Positions 6,170-18,234 are shown, numbered from the stretch's first letter. The stretch is 32,000 bases of DNA from Trichodesmium erythraeum IMS101 (GCF_000014265.1 NC_008312.1:5460001-5492000); one strand, 5' to 3'. Notes: generated by a model from the sequence alone, not told the origin. Numbers and translations: made by a program.

Positions 6170-7006
6170 TGTACTGCTTCAAAAAATTTATATTAAATGT
6201 TACTGGTTATGAAATTTTAATAGGGTGTATTTAAAGCTTATTAGAGTTATTTTTTTATTAAGTCAATACTCTTGTTTCTGAGTATTTTTGTTATAGAATT
6301 TTTGTATTTAGGGATATCCTGTTGTAAATTTAGCTGAATGCTTACCTTAAACTTACCTTTTTAAAGTTCGGGGTAAAAAATCAACTTCAGCATTTCATAA
6401 CGGATACTGAGGGATGCTAGGTGCTGATAACTAATAGCTAAATATTTAGTTTTAATTATCGGTTAAATAGTAATAAAGATTCGCTTACCCATAGCTGAGT
6501 TCTACTTGAGAAGTTGCTTGTGAGTTATTATTAATATTTTTTATTTTAATGTTTATTTTTGTCTACCTACTTAATAAGTAATAACTCATAATTTACAACT
6601 GAAATAAAAAGTTTTACCACTTTATGGCTGGGAAACACTAGTCCGTTTGGGTCTCTTTATCCAGAATAATTTGTAAATTGTCAACTAATTTATTCATCTC
6701 CAGGTTTTGCTGAGACAAAAACACAGCACAGTATTCTTGAGTCAGGGAAAAAACTGACCGAAGTTTTTGCGGAAGTTATATTTTCGGTTTAACTAAAATT
6801 ATCCAAACTTAGATAAGCATAATACCATAAGCTTTGGAGCTAACTTCGGTGTTTCACCCTGATGCCACTGACTATAGTCTATATCTTATCTTCAAGACCA
6901 GGCAACCAAATTATAAGGTAAGGAAGCTCAAGCTATTTATTAATATAGTTTTCGCTCGTTACTTATACTACTACAATATTGCTATGTATATATAAGTTTA
7001 AATAAC

Positions 7007-8129
7007 TATAGCAATCCTAAATAGGTCGCAACAGATATAATAGTAAGAATAACATCTCCAGTCAAAATACAAAGTAATGAATATTATAGATGAACTAGAC
7101 GATTTTATCAATCACACATGCATAGTCAAAAGAAATAAAAAGAGCCTTAGCTGTAAAAATGATTTTGTCGGGAAAATCCTATCATGAAGTCAAAGAATTA
7201 TTAAATGTAACTCAGCAGTTTAGAAAGCGAATGGAAAAACCAAGCACTGTTTCATGGCAAGTGAAAGTTTAAAGCTTCAATTATATTGGAACACAAGGTT
7301 ACTTAAAGGCCGAAGAAAAAGAGCAAATAATTGAGTGGTTGAGGGCACAAAATTACCTAAGATTGTCAGATTTACAAAAATATTTAAAGAAGCAATATGA
7401 TGTGGTTTTTGAGTCTAATCAAAGTTATTATAACTTACTCAAAGAAGCAGGAATAACTTGGAAAAAAACTCAAAAAAAAATCCCGCTAAAAATGATGAAT
7501 TAGTGAAAGCAAAAAAAAAAGAAATAGAGGAATTATTGACTAAATGGCAACCAGAAATAGAATCTGAAAATCTTACAGTGTTTATGATTGATGAATGTCA
7601 TCTATTATGGGGTGATCTATATAGCTATACTTGGGGAAGAACAGATAAAAGAATAGAAATTCCGATAAAAAAATGAAAAAGAAAGACAAACTTATTATGG
7701 AGCCAATTATTATCAAACTAAGGAATTTATTGTGCAAGAATATAAGAATGGAAATACTGAAAAAAAGAATGAATTTGTTAAATATTTACAAGAGCAAAGA
7801 CCAGGAAAAAGATTGGCAATATTTGGGGACGGTGCAACTTATCATAACTCTCAAGAATTTCGAGAATATCTGATGTTAATTAATCAAGATTTACCTGAAG
7901 AAGAATGGTTGATAAATTGTACGCTCATTTGCCCCAAATGCTCCTGAACAAAACCCTGTTGAAGATATTTGGTTGCAAACTAAAAGTTTCATCAGACAAT
8001 TTTATCATCTTTGCAGTTCTTTTAAAGTAGTTAAGTGGCTATTTAAGTTTTTTGCAGATGGTCAAATATTTGATTTCTCAAAGCTTTTTCAGTATGGAAT
8101 TTTGCCACAATCTATTTAGGATTGCTATA
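7007..8129 (+). mobile_element. Degenerate IS630/Tc1-mariner-family insertion sequence with terminal inverted repeats and TA flanks
   Basis: The left end tagcaatcctaaatag (7009-7024) is the exact reverse complement of the right end ctatttaggattgcta (8112-8127). Both ends are flanked by TA (7007-7008, 8128-8129), the IS630 target duplication. The interior encodes a broken DDE transposase. Confidence 0.85.
7078..8118 (+). pseudogene. IS630-family DDE transposase, multiply frameshifted
   Basis: Pieces in three frames join into a typical IS630 transposase: ...QSYYNLLKEAGITWKKTQKK / NPAKNDELVKAKKKEIEELL...FMIDECHLLWGD / NEKERQTYYGA.NYYQTKEF / AIFGDGATYHNSQEF / FAPNAPEQNPVEDIWLQTK. Frame breaks occur at the A9 run 7472-7480, at the A7 run 7667-7673 and near 7925. 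There is an in-frame stop near 7270. Confidence 0.85.
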
Positions 8130-8355
8130 TCGTAGTTAATTTTTATTTAACTTTCAAGTACCTCATCTGTTAGTCCTAAATATAATAAAATATTCTCTAC
8201 TTGTTCACGGGAGCAGAAGGTTTTATTTGTCAAAGTATCCGACTGTTTACCCCGGGTTTCTCCATTAGATGCTCCTTTTCAGGGGAGCACAGGACTTCGT
8301 GCAAGGGTGATTAAAAGATAATTGATTAACTGCTTGATTAATTTTATTACTAATA

Positions 8356-9746: not shown

Positions 9747-10312
9747 AAAAATTACGTTCCAAATACAATTTGTTCAAGTAATAATTTAAAATGCAATAAC
9801 TCTTGTTCTTAATTTTGGCTATTTTGGCAAATTGCCTAAAGTGATCTTAATGTTGATAAATTTATCATAAACTGCAAAAACCTAACCCAGTTATTTAATA
9901 AGGGAGTAGGGTATAAAAAATTATATTCCCTACTAATAACTATTACAATTGATTGAAAATATTTCCTCAGATCAAAAGTAGTGCTAGAAACAAATTATTA
10001 GTCATTGAGCCTATTTTTCCCATTCATTCATCACTTTTTCCATATCTATTTGATATCCAAATTTATAGCAGAATTCCTCCATCATCTTGTTTTTATCTTC
10101 TCACCAAATATCTTTATTATAATTAGCTTTCATAAAGTCTTACCAAGTATTAGTTTCTGCCAAAGATTAAACTATCTTGCACAAATTTCCTCATTGAGGT
10201 ATTGCAGCCAAAATACTAATTAGTAAAAAGACAAGTTCTTCAGTTTTAATTGTTATGCTCATTAATCATCTTTGTTAAACATATTACGAAGTAAAGGCTA
10301 CCCTACTTGATT

Positions 10313-10700
10313 TTACTTTTTAGCTTTTGTCAATAAATTAACCAAATTTTCAGCACGTCGATATTCTTGTTCAACAAGTTCTTCACCAGTTAATAATAAA
10401 TTGCCGTGATTATCCCACCAACATAATCAAAGTAGCTCTATATTATTAGAACCTGCCAAATACCTAACTCAATACCTAACTGCTGAATGGGAAAATAATT
10501 TCGTTCATTATCCTTTACCAATTCATAATTATTAGAAATTAAGCTATATAATTCTATAGGAATTTTTTTGACTTCATAAATGCAGTAAAATGGAATTATA
10601 ATCCCTTTTTCATAAACCCAAAACTTACAAGATTTTCTATCATCTTGAAAATCCGATATTATTGGCGAATTTTTGTCTCTTTTTTCTCCACTATTTCCAT
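10313..10700 (-). pseudogene. Remnant of a Uma2-family (DUF820) endonuclease gene
   Basis: Minus-strand translation gives ...KFWVYEKGIIIPFYCIYEVKKIPIELYSLISNNYELVKDNERNYFPIQQLGIELGIWQ, then a stop and frameshift, then LLWWDNHGNLLLTGEELVEQEYRRAENLVNLLTKAKK*. This resembles the C-terminal half of cyanobacterial Uma2 proteins. The N-terminal half is missing. Confidence 0.45.
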
Positions 10701-10804
10701 AAACAAATTTTAAAACAATGAGAAGAGCAATATATTTTTGCTAAAGCAAATAGTATCTTAGTACTTCTCTATTTAAAAGAGGAGAAACATGAGAAATATA
10801 GAAC

Positions 10805-11575
10805 TAATATAGTATTTCTGCTCTTATGATAATAGGATTAATTAATTGCTAATAAATTTTATGATTTTGACCTATAGTATATTGTCTTTTAGGATAAATT
10901 TTATCTAGGGTATATTTGATAGAATTAGTTAATAAGATACTTTAATGATGTCCCTAATTTTTTTTTCATAAATGTATCATATATTTATAGTATTTTAATA
11001 TGATTGGTAACAGAATTAATATCTAGTTTTTTTATTTAGTAATTACTATTTTTGTACTCATTTAACTTTATTAATAATTAAAAAGCTTCTAGGGAGGTGG
11101 AGGAAAAAACCTAAAGTAAAATACCGACTCCTAAGCCTGACCTTGAAGGGGGAAAAGGGAGAAAAAATAAATAGTTAAACAAAACTACTTAAATCCTCAA
11201 AAAAAATATCTTTTTCAATACAATAGTTTTTATAAAAAAGCTTATAAAATACTTTTAATGATAATAGGATTAATTAATTGCCAATAAATTTTACGGTCTT
11301 GACCTATAGTTTATTGTCTTTATAGGATCAACTTTATCTAGAGTATATTTGATAGAATCAGTTAATAGAATACTTTCATAATTTTCCTAAATTTTTTTTA
11401 TCAATGTACCGTCTAGTTCCTGTAGTTTAATATGATTGGGAACAGAATCAATATCTGGTTTTTTTGATTGAGTAATTACGATTTTTGTACTCATTTTAAA
11501 TCCTCAAAAAAATATATTTTTCAATACAATATTTTTTATAAAACAGCCTATCAAATACTTCTAAATAACTATATA
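10805..11575. repeat. Old, diverged (~80-85% identical by eye) tandem duplication of a ~307-bp unit carrying a decayed small minus-strand ORF
   Basis: gataataggattaattaattgc... at 10828 recurs at 11259. aaatcctcaaaaaaa... at 11191 recurs at 11498. Unit 2 is 11191-11497. A ~120-bp G-rich insert (11069-11190) separates units 1 and 2. The unit 2 ORF on the minus strand starts at 11494 (MSTKIVITQSKKPDIDSVPNHIKLQELDGTLIKKI*). The unit 1 copy is stopped after 8 codons. Confidence 0.7.
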
Positions 11576-11654
11576 TTTTGTCAAATTTATTTTTAAAAAT
11601 AGACTGATAAAACATAAATTAAACATGTTTTTTTTATGGTTGATAGCTGACATC

Positions 11655-11799
11655 TATAACAATCCTAAATCATTTATAAAAAATTACTATTATTTAAAAA
11701 AATAGTTCCAACAACTTTTACTTTTGGGTTCTATTTCACCATAAGTACTTTACCTTCTAGTCGGTCATCTATTTCACAAATTAAGATAGGATTGCTATA
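11655..11799. mobile_element. ~145-bp MITE with termini related to the IS630-family element at 7007-8129
   Basis: The left end tataacaatcctaaat (11655-11670) matches the IS end tatagcaatcctaaat at 15 of 16 positions. The right end taggattgctata (11787-11799) matches the IS right end. TA flanks are present and there is no coding capacity. Confidence 0.6.
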
Positions 11800-11839
11800 A
11801 TACCTCAATGTTTAATTAATTATTGAATATAAAAATAAT

Positions 11840-12277
11840 TTAAACTGCTATAATATCGCCAACTTCTTTATGGTCATTACAGCCAAAAATAGCTTCTTGA
11901 TGACAATAATATTTGAATTCTAGCAAGTTATAAAATGGATCTTCAAGGAAAAAAGTACGATGTTCCAAAGGAGAATTTGTAAACCTCCGCTTAGGTTGCT
12001 GATAGAATTTTAATTTATTTTTTTGAGCACGTTCTAATAAAGCTTCCCAGTCACTTTCTAGGCTAAAAACTAAACCAAAATGTCTGGGGTAAATTCCTTT
12101 TTGTGGTTCTAAAGTTTCTTTAGCAATATGAGCAACAATTTGATTACCATAAAGATTTAAAATCACTGAATTTCGAGATTCTCGCCCAACTTTACAACCT
12201 AAACCATTGCTATAGAATTCTTTCGTTTTGGTAATATTATTCACCGGAAAGGCTAAATGAAAAAGAACTTGATTCAT
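11840..12277 (-). CDS. VOC (glyoxalase/bleomycin-resistance/dioxygenase) family protein, the only full-length copy
   Basis: 145 aa. The HLAFPV..I..TKEFY...LGCKVGR start and the C-terminal FLEDPFYNLLEF segment fit the VOC beta-alpha-beta-beta-beta fold pattern. AAGGAA lies 6 nt upstream of the ATG. Confidence 0.8.
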   Translation of the reverse strand: MNQVLFHLAFPVNNITKTKEFYSNGLGCKVGRESRNSVILNLYGNQIVAHIAKETLEPQKGIYPRHFGLVFSLESDWEALLERAQKNKLKFYQQPKRRFTNSPLEHRTFFLEDPFYNLLEFKYYCHQEAIFGCNDHKEVGDIIAV

Positions 12278-12377
12278 AGTTATTTCCTTGTAATGTGTAA
12301 GTATTATTTTCTCTGGTAAATATTAAGTTAAAATGACAATAGATGTTTTTAGCGAGTAGATATAATGTTATCTAATA

Positions 12378-12710
12378 TTAATTCTGTAAATCCCTGGTTA
12401 AAGGAGAATTTGTAAACCTCCGCTTAGGTTGCTGATAGAATTTTAATTTATTTTTTTGAGCACGTTCTAATAAAGCTTCCCAGTCACTTTCTAGGCTAAA
12501 AACTAAACCAAAATGTCTGGGGTAAATTCCTTTTTGTGGTTCTAAAGTTTCTTTAGCAATATGAGCAACAATTTGATTACCATAAAGATTTAAAATCACT
12601 GAATTTCGAGATTCTCGCCCAACTTTACAACCTAAACCATTGCTATAGAATTCTTTCGTTTTGGTAATATTATTCGCCGGAAAGGCTAAATGAAAAAGAA
12701 CTTGATTCAT
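12378..12710 (-). pseudogene. Truncated VOC copy (codons 1-104 plus 6 junction-derived codons LTRDLQN*), array unit 2
   Basis: Identical to the full-length gene over 104 codons except Val12Ala (G at 12676). The tail is read from the antisense of the DUF92 gene start. It lacks the C-terminal 41 aa. Confidence 0.85.
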
Positions 12711-12810
12711 AGTTATTTCCTTGTAATGTGTAAGTATTATTTTCTCTGGTAAATATTAAGTTAAAATGACAATAGATGTTTTTAGCGAGTAGATATAATG
12801 TTATCTAATA

Positions 12811-13143
12811 TTAATTCTGTAAATCCCTGGTTAAAGGAGAATTTGTAAACCTCCGCTTAGGTTGCTGATAGAATTTTAATTTATTTTTTTGAGCACGTTC
12901 TAATAAAGCTTCCCAGTCACTTTCTAGGCTAAAAACTAAACCAAAATGTCTGGGGTAAATTCCTTTTTGTGGTTCTAAAGTTTCTTTAGCAATATGAGCA
13001 ACAATTTGATTACCATAAAGATTTAAAATCACTGAATTTCGAGATTCTCGCCCAACTTTACAACCTAAACCATTGCTATAGAATTCTTTCGTTTTGGTAA
13101 TATTATTCACCGGAAAGGCTAAATGAAAAAGAACTTGATTCAT
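12811..13143 (-). pseudogene. Truncated VOC copy, array unit 3
   Basis: 110-aa ORF identical in its first 104 aa to 11840-12277, with the same junction tail. Confidence 0.85.
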
Positions 13144-13243
13144 AGTTATTTCCTTGTAATGTGTAAGTATTATTTTCTCTGGTAAATATTAAGTTAAAAT
13201 GACAATAGATGTTTTTAGCGAGTAGATATAATGTTATCTAATA

Positions 13244-13576
13244 TTAATTCTGTAAATCCCTGGTTAAAGGAGAATTTGTAAACCTCCGCTTAGGTTGCTG
13301 ATAGAATTTTAATTTATTTTTTTGAGCACGTTCTAATAAAGCTTCCCAGTCACTTTCTAGGCTAAAAACTAAACCAAAATGTCTGGGGTAAATTCCTTTT
13401 TGTGGTTCTAAAGTTTCTTTAGCAATATGAGCAACAATTTGATTACCATAAAGATTTAAAATCACTGAATTTCGAGATTCTCGCCCAACTTTACAACCTA
13501 AACCATTGCTATAGAATTCTTTCGTTTTGGTAATATTATTCACCGGAAAGGCTAAATGAAAAAGAACTTGATTCAT
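13244..13576 (-). pseudogene. Truncated VOC copy, array unit 4
   Basis: 110-aa ORF identical in its first 104 aa to 11840-12277, with the same junction tail. Confidence 0.85.
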
Positions 13577-13676
13577 AGTTATTTCCTTGTAATGTGTAAG
13601 TATTATTTTCTCTGGTAAATATTAAGTTAAAATGACAATAGATGTTTTCAGCGAGTAGATATAATGTTATCTAATA

Positions 13677-14009
13677 TTAATTCTGTAAATCCCTGGTTAA
13701 AGGAGAATTTGTAAACCTCCGCTTAGGTTGTTGATAGAATTTTAATTTATTTTTTTGAGCACGTTCTAATAAAGCTTCCCAGTCACTTTCTAGGCTAAAA
13801 ACTAAACCAAAATGTCTGGGGTAAATTCCTTTTTGTGGTTCTAAAGTTTCTTTAGCAATATGAGCAACAATTTGATTACCATAAAGATTTAAAATCACTG
13901 AATTTCGAGATTCTCGCCCAACTTTACAACCTAAACCATTGCTATAGAATTCTTTCGTTTTGGTAATATTATTCACCGGAAAGGCTAAATGAAAAAGAAC
14001 TTGATTCAT
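13677..14009 (-). pseudogene. Truncated VOC copy, array unit 5
   Basis: 110-aa ORF identical in its first 104 aa, with a synonymous C-to-T change at 13731. Confidence 0.85.
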
Positions 14010-14109
14010 AGTTATTTCCTTGTAATGTGTAAGTATTATTTTCTCTGGTAAATATTAAGTTAAAATGACAATAGATGTTTTTAGCGAGTAGATATAATGT
14101 TATCTAATA

Positions 14110-14442
14110 TTAATTCTGTAAATCCCTGGTTAAAGGAGAATTTGTAAACCTCCGCTTAGGTTGTTGATAGAATTTTAATTTATTTTTTTGAGCACGTTCT
14201 AATAAAGCTTCCCAGTCACTTTCTAGGCTAAAAACTAAACCAAAATGTCTGGGGTAAATTCCTTTTTGTGGTTCTAAAGTTTCTTTAGCAATATGAGCAA
14301 CAATTTGATTACCATAAAGATTTAAAATCACTGAATTTCGAGATTCTCGCCCAACTTTACAACCTAAACCATTGCTATAGAATTCTTTCGTTTTGGTAAT
14401 ATTATTCACCGGAAAGGCTAAATGAAAAAGAACTTGATTCAT
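14110..14442 (-). pseudogene. Truncated VOC copy, array unit 6
   Basis: 110-aa ORF identical in its first 104 aa, with a synonymous T at 14164. Confidence 0.85.
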
Positions 14443-14542
14443 AGTTATTTCCTTGTAATGTGTAAGTATTATTTTCTCTGGTAAATATTAAGTTAAAATG
14501 ACAATAGATGTTTTTAGCGAGTAGATATAATGTTATCTAATA

Positions 14543-14875
14543 TTAATTCTGTAAATCCCTGGTTAAAGGAGAATTTGTAAACCTCCGCTTAGGTTGTTGA
14601 TAGAATTTTAATTTATTTTTTTGAGCACGTTCTAATAAAGCTTCCCAGTCACTTTCTAGGCTAAAAACTAAACCAAAATGTCTGGGGTAAATTCCTTTTT
14701 GTGGTTCTAAAGTTTCTTTAGCAATATGAGCAACAATTTGATTACCATAAAGATTTAAAATCACTGAATTTCGAGATTCTCGCCCAACTTTACAACCTAA
14801 ACCATTGCTATAGAATTCTTTCGTTTTGGTAATATTATTCACCGGAAAGGCTAAATGAAAAAGAACTTGATTCAT
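14543..14875 (-). pseudogene. Truncated VOC copy, array unit 7 (adjacent to the intact DUF92 gene)
   Basis: 110-aa ORF identical in its first 104 aa, with a synonymous T at 14597. Confidence 0.85.
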
Positions 14876-14962
14876 AGTTATTTCCTTGTAATGTGTAAGT
14901 ATTATTTTCTCTGGTAAATATTAAGTTAAAATGACAATAGATGTTTTTAGCGAGTAGATATA
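14876..14962. promoter_or_regulatory. 87-bp divergent intergenic region between the VOC (-) and DUF92 (+) genes; presumed bidirectional promoter, present in all seven units
   Basis: It is the only non-coding DNA between two divergently oriented start codons. The minus-strand AAGGAA (14882-14887) lies 6 nt before the VOC ATG. A TATAAT hexamer (14959-14964) overlaps the DUF92 ATG. No transcription start site can be assigned from sequence. Confidence 0.4.
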
Positions 14963-15748
14963 ATGTTATCTAATATTAATTCTGTAAATCCCTGGTTAGT
15001 AGCTATACTTTTAAATATTATTTTACTTAGTCTAGTTTATTTCGCTCCCAAAAAATTATTGACTCCCTGGGGAATAGTTCATGCTTGGATATTGGGAGTT
15101 TTAATTTGGGGTAGTTTGGGTTGGCCTGGATATGCGGTAGTGGTGTTTTATTTTTTGGTTGGTTCTGGGGTGACTCGCATTGGAATGGCCGAAAAGCAAG
15201 CCGCTGGAATTGCAGAAAAGCGGGAAGGTGCTAGAGGACCAGAAAATGTTTGGGGTTCGGCTTTGACTGCTGCTATCTGTGCTATGGGAGTTTGGGTCAT
15301 TGGTCTGTTATACCCGAATAATTTTCCTATAGAAAATTTACCATTGTTACTAATGTTAGGTTATGTAGCTAGTTTTAGTACTAAGCTTTCTGATACTTGT
15401 GCTAGTGAGGTAGGGAAAGCTTACGGTCAGCGGACTTTTTTAATTACAACTCTACAACCAGTGCCACGGGGAACTGAGGGTGCTGTAAGTTTAGAGGGGA
15501 CTTTAGCAGGTGTTGTGGCTTCTTTTGCGATCGCTGTAGTTGGTTGGACTGTAGGTTTAATTGATTTGACAGGAATAGTCTTTTGTGTTATTTCAGCTTT
15601 TATTGCTACTAATTTGGAGAGTTTAATTGGAGCAACAATGCAGTCTCAGTTTGAATGGTTAACAAATGAAGTTGTAAATATTATCAATACTTCAATTGGA
15701 GCGATCGCTGCAATTGTATTAGCTATAGTTTGGTTTAATAAATATTAA
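14963..15748 (+). CDS. DUF92/TIGR00297-family (TMEM19-like) integral membrane protein
   Basis: Multiple hydrophobic spans. Family-like motifs NPWL...APKKLLTPWG..HAW.LG, GARGPENVWGSALTAA, STKLSDTCASEVGKAYG and VPRGTEGAVSLEGTLAG. Confidence 0.8.
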   Translation: MLSNINSVNPWLVAILLNIILLSLVYFAPKKLLTPWGIVHAWILGVLIWGSLGWPGYAVVVFYFLVGSGVTRIGMAEKQAAGIAEKREGARGPENVWGSALTAAICAMGVWVIGLLYPNNFPIENLPLLLMLGYVASFSTKLSDTCASEVGKAYGQRTFLITTLQPVPRGTEGAVSLEGTLAGVVASFAIAVVGWTVGLIDLTGIVFCVISAFIATNLESLIGATMQSQFEWLTNEVVNIINTSIGAIAAIVLAIVWFNKY

Positions 15749-17396: not shown

Positions 17397-18234
17397 TGAG
17401 TGATGAAAATAAATCTATTCATGAGTTTGATTTGAGATTAATCTATGAATATTATTCGACTATAGAAAGATAAGAACCTGGGAGTCCTGAAGTAACTATT
17501 AAAGCTTGAAGCTTTATTAATAATCTGAAAGATAAATCAAAAATTGCTGATATAGGTTGTGGAACTGGTGGTCAGATGATGGTAATAGCTAATCATAAGT
17601 CAGGGAATATTACAGCTATCGATCTGTCTCCCATCTTTATAGATATATTCAATATTAATAGTCAGAAATTGAGTCTCCAAAATAGAGTGAATGGTATTGT
17701 CGCTTTAATGAATAACTTTCTTTTTCAAAATGAAGAATTAAATTTAATATGGTCAGAAATAGCAATATATAATATTGGATTTGAACAATGAAGAATTAAA
17801 TTTAATATGGTCAGAAATAGCAATATATAATATTGGATTTGAACGAGGTATAAATGAATGATATAAGTTTTTTAAGAAAGGAGCTTTACTTGCAGTTTCA
17901 GAAGCATCATGGTTTACTCAAGAAAGACCTGTAGAAATTAATGAGTTTTGGAATAATGAATACTCAGAAATATATACTATTTCAAATAAAGTGACACAAA
18001 TGCAAAAAGCAGGATATATTCCAATTGCTAATTTTGTACTGCCTAAAAATTGTTGGACTGAACATTTTTATGCTCCGCAAGTTTCTGCGCAGAAAAAATT
18101 TTTGCAAAAATATTTAGGCAATAAAAATGCCGAAAAACTCTGAGAAAATCAACGGCATGAAGCCAAATTTTACGATAAAGATAAAGAGTTTCATGGCTAT
18201 GTTTTCTATATAGGAAAAAAGATTTCAAACTAAG
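17397..18234 (+). pseudogene. Class I SAM-dependent methyltransferase, inactivated
   Basis: SAM motif I is present ([12 protein letters not shown]), followed by [19 protein letters not shown]...AVSEASWFT...EINEFW...YGYVFYIGKK. In-frame stops follow IER and follow TIKA. A 58-bp frameshifting tandem duplication is present, and there are further stops near 17860 and 18141. Confidence 0.8.
17729..17844 (+). repeat. Perfect 58-bp direct tandem duplication inside the methyltransferase pseudogene
   Basis: aatgaagaattaaatttaatatggtcagaaatagcaatatataatattggatttgaac occurs at 17729-17786 and again at 17787-17844. A 58-nt insertion shifts the frame. Confidence 0.9.

Follow-up and report, generated by a model that had tools for sequence, protein, structure and literature searches.

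A seven-copy tandem array of a divergent promoter segment and both adjoining gene starts at the VOC/DUF92 locus of Trichodesmium erythraeum IMS101

The region analyzed here is a 32,000-nt stretch of the genome of Trichodesmium erythraeum IMS101 (GCF_000014265.1, NC_008312.1:5460001-5492000), referred to below as the window and numbered from its first letter, in which two divergently oriented genes are connected by seven head-to-tail copies of a 433-bp segment made up of their shared intergenic spacer and the starts of both genes. The minus-strand partner is an intact open reading frame (ORF) of the VOC/glyoxalase family encoding 145 amino acids (aa) (11840..12277, ABG52636.1; Pfam PF00903, E 1.6e-12), whose product aligns over residues 5-127 to PDB 3rri (E 4e-26) and more weakly matches FosB. 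The plus-strand partner is an intact gene for a 261-aa membrane protein of the DUF92/TIGR00297 family (14963..15748, ABG52643.1; Pfam PF01940, E 7e-67; NCBIfam TIGR00297, 264 bits), which in cyanobacteria probably corresponds to VTE6, the phytyl-phosphate kinase of plants.

Tandem Repeats Finder reported the 433-bp array as the most outstanding tandem repeat of the window (11967-14998, period 433, 7.0 copies, 99% matches, 0% indels, score 6029). Flank and unit end share one A only (11967), and the reported start is hence one base early. Cutting the array at 11968 and comparing it unit by unit yielded seven abutting units over 11968..14998, namely 11968-12400, 12401-12833, 12834-13266, 13267-13699, 13700-14132, 14133-14565 and 14566-14998, exactly as given by the first-pass annotation, which had been made from the sequence without database searches. 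The units are direct repeats that follow each other with nothing between them. Among all seven, only five bases differ, at three unit positions: unit 2 carries an A>G change at unit position 276 (12676; Val12Ala in the VOC fragment), unit 4 a T>C change at unit position 383 (13649; within the intergenic spacer) and units 5-7 a synonymous C>T change at unit position 32 (13731, 14164 and 14597), while the sequences of units 1 and 3 are identical.

Each unit comprises 310 nt of the VOC gene (103 codons and one nucleotide), the 87-bp spacer (unit positions 311-397) and 36 nt of the DUF92 gene (codons 1-12, unit positions 398-433), and thus holds partial copies of both adjoining genes and no complete one. 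The earlier description of the unit content was correct for the spacer and the DUF92 codons and needed a slight adjustment for the VOC part, which had been put at codons 1-104. Of the intact VOC gene, unit 1 contains the first ~104 codons, the 3' end (11840-11967) being outside the array, while codons 1-12 of the intact DUF92 gene lie inside unit 7; the ORF list accordingly agrees with the statement that only unit 1 reaches the VOC 3' end and only unit 7 the rest of DUF92. Repeat, unit and ORF structure together support the overall description of the array as a head-to-tail amplification of a divergent promoter plus both gene starts.

Where two units meet, DUF92 codon 12 is joined to VOC codon 104, a novel junction that reads TCCCTGGTTA followed by AAGGAGAATT at 12391..12410, with the break between 12400 and 12401. 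The junction is present six times, once every 433 bp, and all six internal boundaries consist of CCCTGGTTA abutting AAGGAGAATTT, so that there is a single junction type; the one-nucleotide (a) microhomology proposed for it was confirmed. In the VOC frame, TTG is turned into TTA at the junction, which keeps Leu104, and translation continues through six new residues, TRDLQN, to a stop. The result is six truncated VOC ORFs of 110 aa each (104 native residues plus TRDLQN) on the minus strand between 12378 and 14875, located at 12378-12710 (the Val12Ala copy), 12811-13143, 13244-13576, 13677-14009, 14110-14442 and 14543-14875. In the DUF92 frame, the junction adds KENL and a stop, giving a 16-aa ORF, MLSNINSVNPWLKENL, that in unit 1 occupies 12365..12415 on the plus strand, running from DUF92 codons 1-12 into the next unit, and that repeats at 433-bp steps through units 1-6.

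In the IMS101 annotation the truncated VOC copies are named "glyoxalase family protein". An exact-sequence look-up assigned ABG52637.1 to the Val12Ala fragment, and ABG52638.1-ABG52641.1 were among the matches listed for the other 110-aa sequence. Judged from the 3rri alignment, the fragments are without residues 105-145, including the last beta-strands of the fold and the conserved segment EHRTFFLEDPFYNLLEFKYY, which belongs to the last strands of the second VOC module and presumably supplies a metal ligand. Because they end at residue 104, without EHRTFFLEDPFYNLLEFKYY, they are incomplete VOC proteins and do not possess the complete pair of beta-alpha-beta-beta-beta modules, C-terminal strands included, that characterizes the VOC superfamily.

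The 87-bp divergent spacer is a putative bidirectional promoter. Its copy in unit 7, next to the intact DUF92 gene, lies at 14876..14962, and the other copies are at 12278-12364, 12711-12797, 13144-13230, 13577-13663 (with the T>C change at 13649), 14010-14096 and 14443-14529. The spacer is conserved in the Trichodesmium metagenome-assembled genomes (MAGs) R01, R03 and R04 and in one Microcoleaceae MAG. A consensus scan found promoter-like hexamer pairs on both strands of every unit, which are consensus matches only, and the sole terminator-like site in the unit was a weak 5-bp stem within coding sequence.

The junction is genuine and widespread in ocean populations. The exact 110-aa junction ORF occurred in 52 blocks of public assemblies in the index searched, was seen on contigs belonging to ten or more different sample accessions, several of them from Tara Oceans, and is also annotated in strain GBRTRLIN201. 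Since this ORF can exist only with the junction, the junction is real wherever the ORF is found. A 40-mer spanning the junction was present in 12 loci fetched from other assemblies, and the flanks of junction-bearing wild contigs were 99.2-99.98% identical to the window, which identifies these contigs as the same species. The IMS101 within-array variants 32T and 383C were found again in wild contigs and are therefore not sequencing noise; the Val12Ala fragment of unit 2 was, by exact look-up in other assemblies, on record only in IMS101. No match to the junction was obtained in metagenomes of the Joint Genome Institute, nor to a control pattern from the unit interior, so that this collection is without the locus and uninformative.

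How the wild contigs handle the array varies. Many junction contigs end 55-200 bp beyond the junction, the array is collapsed to two units in L081/L096 and L086, and the scaffolds L082 and L091 have a 100-N gap within it. These breaks, collapses and gaps presumably arise from a repeat exceeding the k-mer used in short-read de Bruijn assembly. Two 574-bp k141 contigs (L101 and L102), which come from two assemblies, begin and end with the same 141 bp and form closed 433-bp cycles with a private Arg35Gln variant; such a cycle means that consecutive internal units carry the same variant. The first-pass annotation had allowed for the array being an artefact of assembly expansion. For the junction this fear was disproved, as many metagenome assemblies made independently of each other, another strain and the cycle contigs all contain it, and an array that does not exist at all was ruled out by the same three lines of evidence.

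Related genomes show the state from which the array was probably derived. We scanned one genome per species, which provided 80 loci with DUF92 relatives. The divergent VOC and DUF92 pair is kept well beyond Trichodesmium, in numerous filamentous cyanobacteria. Trichodesmium MAG R03/R04 gave a single, uninterrupted alignment of the whole unit at 92%, and in Okeania, Dapis, MAG R02 and others the unit, again present once, is split by spacer insertions. The repeated segment thus corresponds to an unbroken piece of sequence of which relatives have one copy, a comparison that the first-pass annotation had suggested. Tandem Repeats Finder detected no comparable array at the VOC/DUF92 locus in 81 related loci. 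The spacer itself ranged from 87 bp in Trichodesmium to 936 bp in Okeania and MAG_R02 among the loci L001-L030, and it appears to be a recurrent insertion site because of this span of lengths.

Wild arrays, in each of which one or two units are visible, also bear on the age of the duplication. At spacer position 320 all seven IMS101 units have C, while the two units of L086, the cycles L101 and L102 and the majority of the remaining wild units have T, with the same junction in all of them. Identical breakpoints with one-nucleotide microhomology are unlikely to arise twice, and we infer that wild and IMS101 arrays probably share one origin. One substitution is thus common to all units of one array and differs between arrays of apparently the same origin, the pattern expected of concerted evolution; together with a single origin, this array-wide difference implies homogenisation by unequal exchange or gene conversion, or repeated shrinkage and re-expansion. 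To account for the near-identity of the units, the first-pass annotation had offered either a very recent origin or active homogenisation. The evidence speaks for the second part of this proposal and against the first, as the junction is common to wild haplotypes that differ at position 320, and an old single origin with ongoing homogenisation is favoured. Variants private to internal units change the encoded residue (Val12Ala, Arg35Gln, Gln92His and Leu69Val) and the between-lineage differences in the VOC part are mostly synonymous, which fits relaxed constraint on the fragments, albeit in small numbers. L103, a divergent haplotype with the junction, would place the duplication deeper in the tree. 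L087 (ERZ21827681 NODE_1633456, coverage 5) has the junction and a unit 99.8% identical to IMS101 together with a DUF92 body that, from about window position 15070 on, is ~92-93% identical to IMS101, and is either a chimera between Trichodesmium species or an array-bearing recombinant. Dating the duplication by L103 and L087 was set aside, as both are possibly metagenome chimeras.

The reading that we prefer, with a probability of roughly 0.7, combines these observations into an illegitimate join followed by expansion and homogenisation, and regards the array as a nearly neutral or mildly regulatory variant that is kept by recombination dynamics, with no dedicated device involved. Judging from the junction, the array would have originated in one illegitimate join that linked DUF92 codon 12 to VOC codon 104 with one nucleotide of microhomology, and this first join would have duplicated a 433-bp segment containing the whole promoter spacer between VOC and DUF92. 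The array may then have grown to seven units in IMS101 as the 433-bp repeats underwent unequal homologous exchange or replication slipped between them. Aided by gene conversion, these processes would also hold the units near-identical, which the comparison of populations supports. High ploidy would favour both expansion and homogenisation; with reference to Sargent 2016, PMC9640675 works on the assumption of 100 genome copies in each cell. The end units would leave both intact genes their native promoter-proximal sequence, and the array would be tolerated because this native upstream sequence is kept.

The six internal units would be promoter-bearing pseudogene fragments, each potentially giving rise to a 110-aa VOC stump and a 16-aa peptide. 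Their promoters probably fire, since their sequence is identical to that of the native ones. If so, the plus-strand promoter of one unit and the minus-strand promoter of the next would converge across the intervening VOC fragment, because no convincing terminator lies between them; plus-strand transcripts would be antisense to VOC codons 1-104, minus-strand read-through would be antisense to the DUF92 start, and some read-through may reach the intact genes. The additive outcome put forward by the first-pass annotation, which had not taken this convergence into account, namely seven promoters feeding each gene, is only one of those possible, because the facing promoters converge, and the net effect of this convergent layout could equally be interference or antisense as dosage.

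Several points weigh against the interpretation that we prefer. Promoter firing, read-through and neutrality are all things that we infer, and the persistence of the array across oceans could reflect selection and not neutrality. The figure of seven copies comes from the IMS101 assembly only. L081, a short-read contig of 99.98% identity, has two copies, as a collapsed assembly would give, and seven long contigs (L092-L095, L097, L098 and L100) run from DUF92 through one unit to the VOC 3' end without the junction. These junction-less contigs may be true single-copy alleles, in which case the array is not fixed, or the product of assembler simplification; some of them share haplotypes with junction-bearing contigs of the same projects. 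Taken together, short-read contigs have the unit once or twice, break off, contain N-gaps or close into cycles, outcomes in which assembler behaviour and true variation look alike, and variation in copy number among populations is suggested. A deep origin is only weakly backed by L103, which may be chimeric, as junction k-mers are common to several lineages.

Alternative explanations differ in how much of the evidence they can accommodate. That the array is absent or its copy number in IMS101 wrong would be in line with the one-copy, two-copy, broken or gapped versions in short-read assemblies, but numerous independent assemblies with the junction, and the closed cycles, exclude its absence, and an error in copy number is made less likely by unit-specific variants that are arranged in order along the array (unit 2; unit 4; units 5-7), with wild DNA showing two of the three again. 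As the variants are ordered by unit and two recur in the wild, the IMS101 assembly appears resolved rather than inflated, and we consider this explanation very improbable. The IMS101 genome was presumably finished from Sanger reads with paired clones able to span 3 kb. Virtually no credence is given to a mobile or programmed repeat system, that is, a CRISPR array, a cluster of insertion sequences (IS) or miniature inverted-repeat transposable elements (MITEs), integron cassettes or the target of a diversity-generating retroelement. The IMS101 genome is IS-rich, with a CRISPR remnant and a diversity-generating retroelement (PMC4143802), and an IS-like element is situated 4 kb from the array at 7007-8129, but the unit is local sequence that is single-copy in relatives. 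More specifically, a CRISPR array was ruled out since the repeats are 433 bp and not ~20-50 bp long, are without spacers and have no Rfam match, and an IS, MITE or transposon since no terminal inverted repeats were found at the unit ends and the content is only VOC, spacer and DUF92. The target of a diversity-generating retroelement is ruled out by C>T, A>G and T>C changes that are not adenine-specific, with no reverse transcriptase among the neighbouring genes scanned, and an integron or other mobile system by abutting units of ordinary local sequence, with no recombinase among the same genes. A structured non-coding RNA in the unit was also dismissed, as the unit matched no Rfam family and showed no unusual RNA fold on either strand (z = +0.75 and -0.16); no transfer RNA was found in it either. 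Unit structure, the missing Rfam match and the missing inverted repeats are thus in keeping with the earlier assertion that the array is not a CRISPR, IS, integron or non-coding satellite.

Readings that grant the array a function of its own turn on what its promoters would do. Selection could keep the array if seven promoters per strand raised the expression of VOC and/or DUF92 by read-through, and the presence in every unit of the entire conserved 87-bp spacer, with promoter-like hexamers on either strand, the lack of a convincing intrinsic terminator in the unit, the persistence of the junction in wild populations of several oceans and the other 7-unit array of the same genome, with a start site per repeat and 44.7% of the primary reads (PMC4143802), are all compatible with such adaptive dosage. 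We nevertheless regard it as unlikely, as transcripts starting further upstream would need to traverse as much as 2.6 kb of units in which the neighbouring promoter drives convergent transcription, pairing with complementary RNA normally lowers output, single-unit contigs near-identical to IMS101 exist (L098 and L100), and whole-gene amplification would be a simpler route to higher dosage. The internal units might instead lower or tune expression in trans or in cis, as an antisense, interference or decoy device. This follows from the geometry in which the plus promoter of one unit faces the minus promoter of the next, since plus transcripts of units 1-6 would be antisense to VOC codons 1-104 and minus transcripts of units 2-7 to the DUF92 start; in addition, seven spacer copies could titrate a regulator, and passages of PMC4143802 describe T. 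erythraeum as unusually rich in non-coding and antisense start sites. Such a device is deduced from the layout, neither a structured RNA signal nor a regulator site was identified, and we judge it very unlikely. A broader version, in which the array is a selected regulatory module whose seven bidirectional promoters make overlapping sense and antisense RNA or titrate a regulator and thereby set the expression of the VOC and DUF92 pair, is given little weight as well. If it were true, copy number would be a heritable, quickly adjustable dial in a highly polyploid cell, and the array would be a second Trichodesmium case of expression devices built by tandem amplification of promoter-bearing fragments.

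Compared with known systems, the array most resembles bacterial duplication-amplification. In the duplication-amplification-reduction model of Roth, Andersson and colleagues, amplified segments measure from kilobases up to hundreds of kilobases, contain the gene under selection and disappear quickly once selection is lacking. Head-to-tail direct repeats, one low-homology novel junction, identical units, single-copy relatives and presumed later expansion and contraction by homologous unequal exchange are features in common, whereas the 433-bp unit without a complete gene and the occurrence of the junction in wild populations of several oceans set the VOC/DUF92 array apart from classic amplification. 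It has every structural hallmark of a tandem duplication-amplification except a complete gene in the unit. Concerted evolution is known for ribosomal DNA (rDNA) repeats and for minisatellites or variable number tandem repeat (VNTR) loci. As in these, identity is higher within the array than between strains, substitutions are array-wide and strain-specific, and copy number may vary; in contrast to them, each unit combines two gene starts and a promoter into a chimera and is neither a functional gene nor a simple non-coding satellite. The TR34 and TR46 alleles upstream of cyp51A in Aspergillus fumigatus, repeats of tens of base pairs that are located entirely upstream of a single gene and have been measured to raise expression, share the property that regulatory DNA was duplicated and not a gene, but the VOC/DUF92 unit is bidirectional, includes coding starts and is known here from sequence alone.

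A closer parallel exists within the same genome. The array described by Pfreundt 2014 (PMC4143802) covers >6 kb with 7 tandem repeats of 736-973 bp at IMS101 103,000-110,200, and its units, >96% identical, consist of the 3' part of Tery_0080 and sequence without known relatives. A start site in each repeat produces a ~260-nt RNA that accounts for 44.7% of all primary reads (PMC4143802). Both arrays have seven near-identical units with a promoter inside the unit and a partial copy of an adjoining gene. They differ in locus and in unit length, the present one being shorter, and transcription was demonstrated experimentally for the Pfreundt array, while the VOC/DUF92 array has so far been seen as DNA sequence only. 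It has no entry in the main text of Pfreundt 2014 (PMC4143802) or in the supplements of PMC9640675, and a literature search found no paper describing it.

The sequence and the fragment annotation are already public, and the array is an ordinary kind of tandem duplication. Noteworthy are its persistence in wild populations, the evidence for homogenisation and the resemblance to the array of seven repeats already published; to a specialist it comes as no surprise, given how repeat-rich this genome is known to be. Trichodesmium supplies a large share of new nitrogen in tropical oceans, and the protein-coding share of the T. erythraeum IMS101 genome is only ~60%, which is unusually low. The array exemplifies how repeat-rich non-coding DNA could rise and persist, by micro-amplification of a promoter segment and subsequent homogenisation of the copies. 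If the internal promoters fire, it would also constitute a natural test of multiplying a divergent promoter head to tail, with dosage, interference or antisense as outcomes. On the practical side, short-read assemblies and MAGs collapse, break or gap the array, and annotation pipelines list six spurious "VOC family proteins".

Further repeats were observed in the vicinity. Non-coding sequence downstream of the VOC gene contains an older, degenerate two-copy tandem duplication at 10826..11564 (copy A, 10826-11258; copy B, 11258-11564, without ~126 bp), the copies being 82-92% identical with a start-to-start distance of 432-433 bp. Although this period matches that of the array, 400 bp away, no similarity between the duplication and the array unit was found. 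Were the array a selected regulatory module after all, the matching 432-433-bp period might indicate a common formation mechanism. The wild T. erythraeum contig L092 carries the duplication as well, as does Trichodesmium MAG_R01 (L107), but MAG_R03/R04 do not. The idea that the 2.1 kb of non-coding sequence to the left of VOC might harbour decayed copies of the array was dismissed, as nothing there resembled the unit at the nucleotide or protein level. The 1123-bp element at 7007-8129 has perfect 18-bp terminal inverted repeats (TATAGCAATCCTAAATAG) and ORFs broken in several frames, and it is absent from every wild contig spanning the site, where alignments leave off at 7009 and resume at 8128. 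This element is probably an insertion sequence that has decayed and that only IMS101 has; its terminal repeat occurs once more, on its own, at 11654-11670.

Other observations concern contig ends and sequence elsewhere in the window. Contigs of three MAGs of a lineage ~99% identical to IMS101 (L104, L105 and L106; GCA_028982645.1, GCA_028982485.1 and GCA_028982665.1) all end at unit position 24, inside the VOC fragment, and this shared break 23 nt before the array boundary yields a 95-aa partial VOC. A perfect 58-bp x 2 tandem duplication at 17729-17844 is apparently single-copy in wild contigs, with alignments joining at 17780/17786. The long AT-rich stretches at 9747-11839 and 6170-8355 (25-30% G+C) contain no ORF of at least 100 aa, which fits the low coding density reported for the genome (PMC4143802). 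Near the left end of the window, a nitrite/sulfite reductase-family gene (ORF 50-2536) has in-frame 51-bp tandem repeats near its 3' end (1897-2321), and the encoded protein, 828 aa long in the window, reaches 885 or 902 aa in contigs from the wild, suggesting that repeat number is polymorphic in this coding region.

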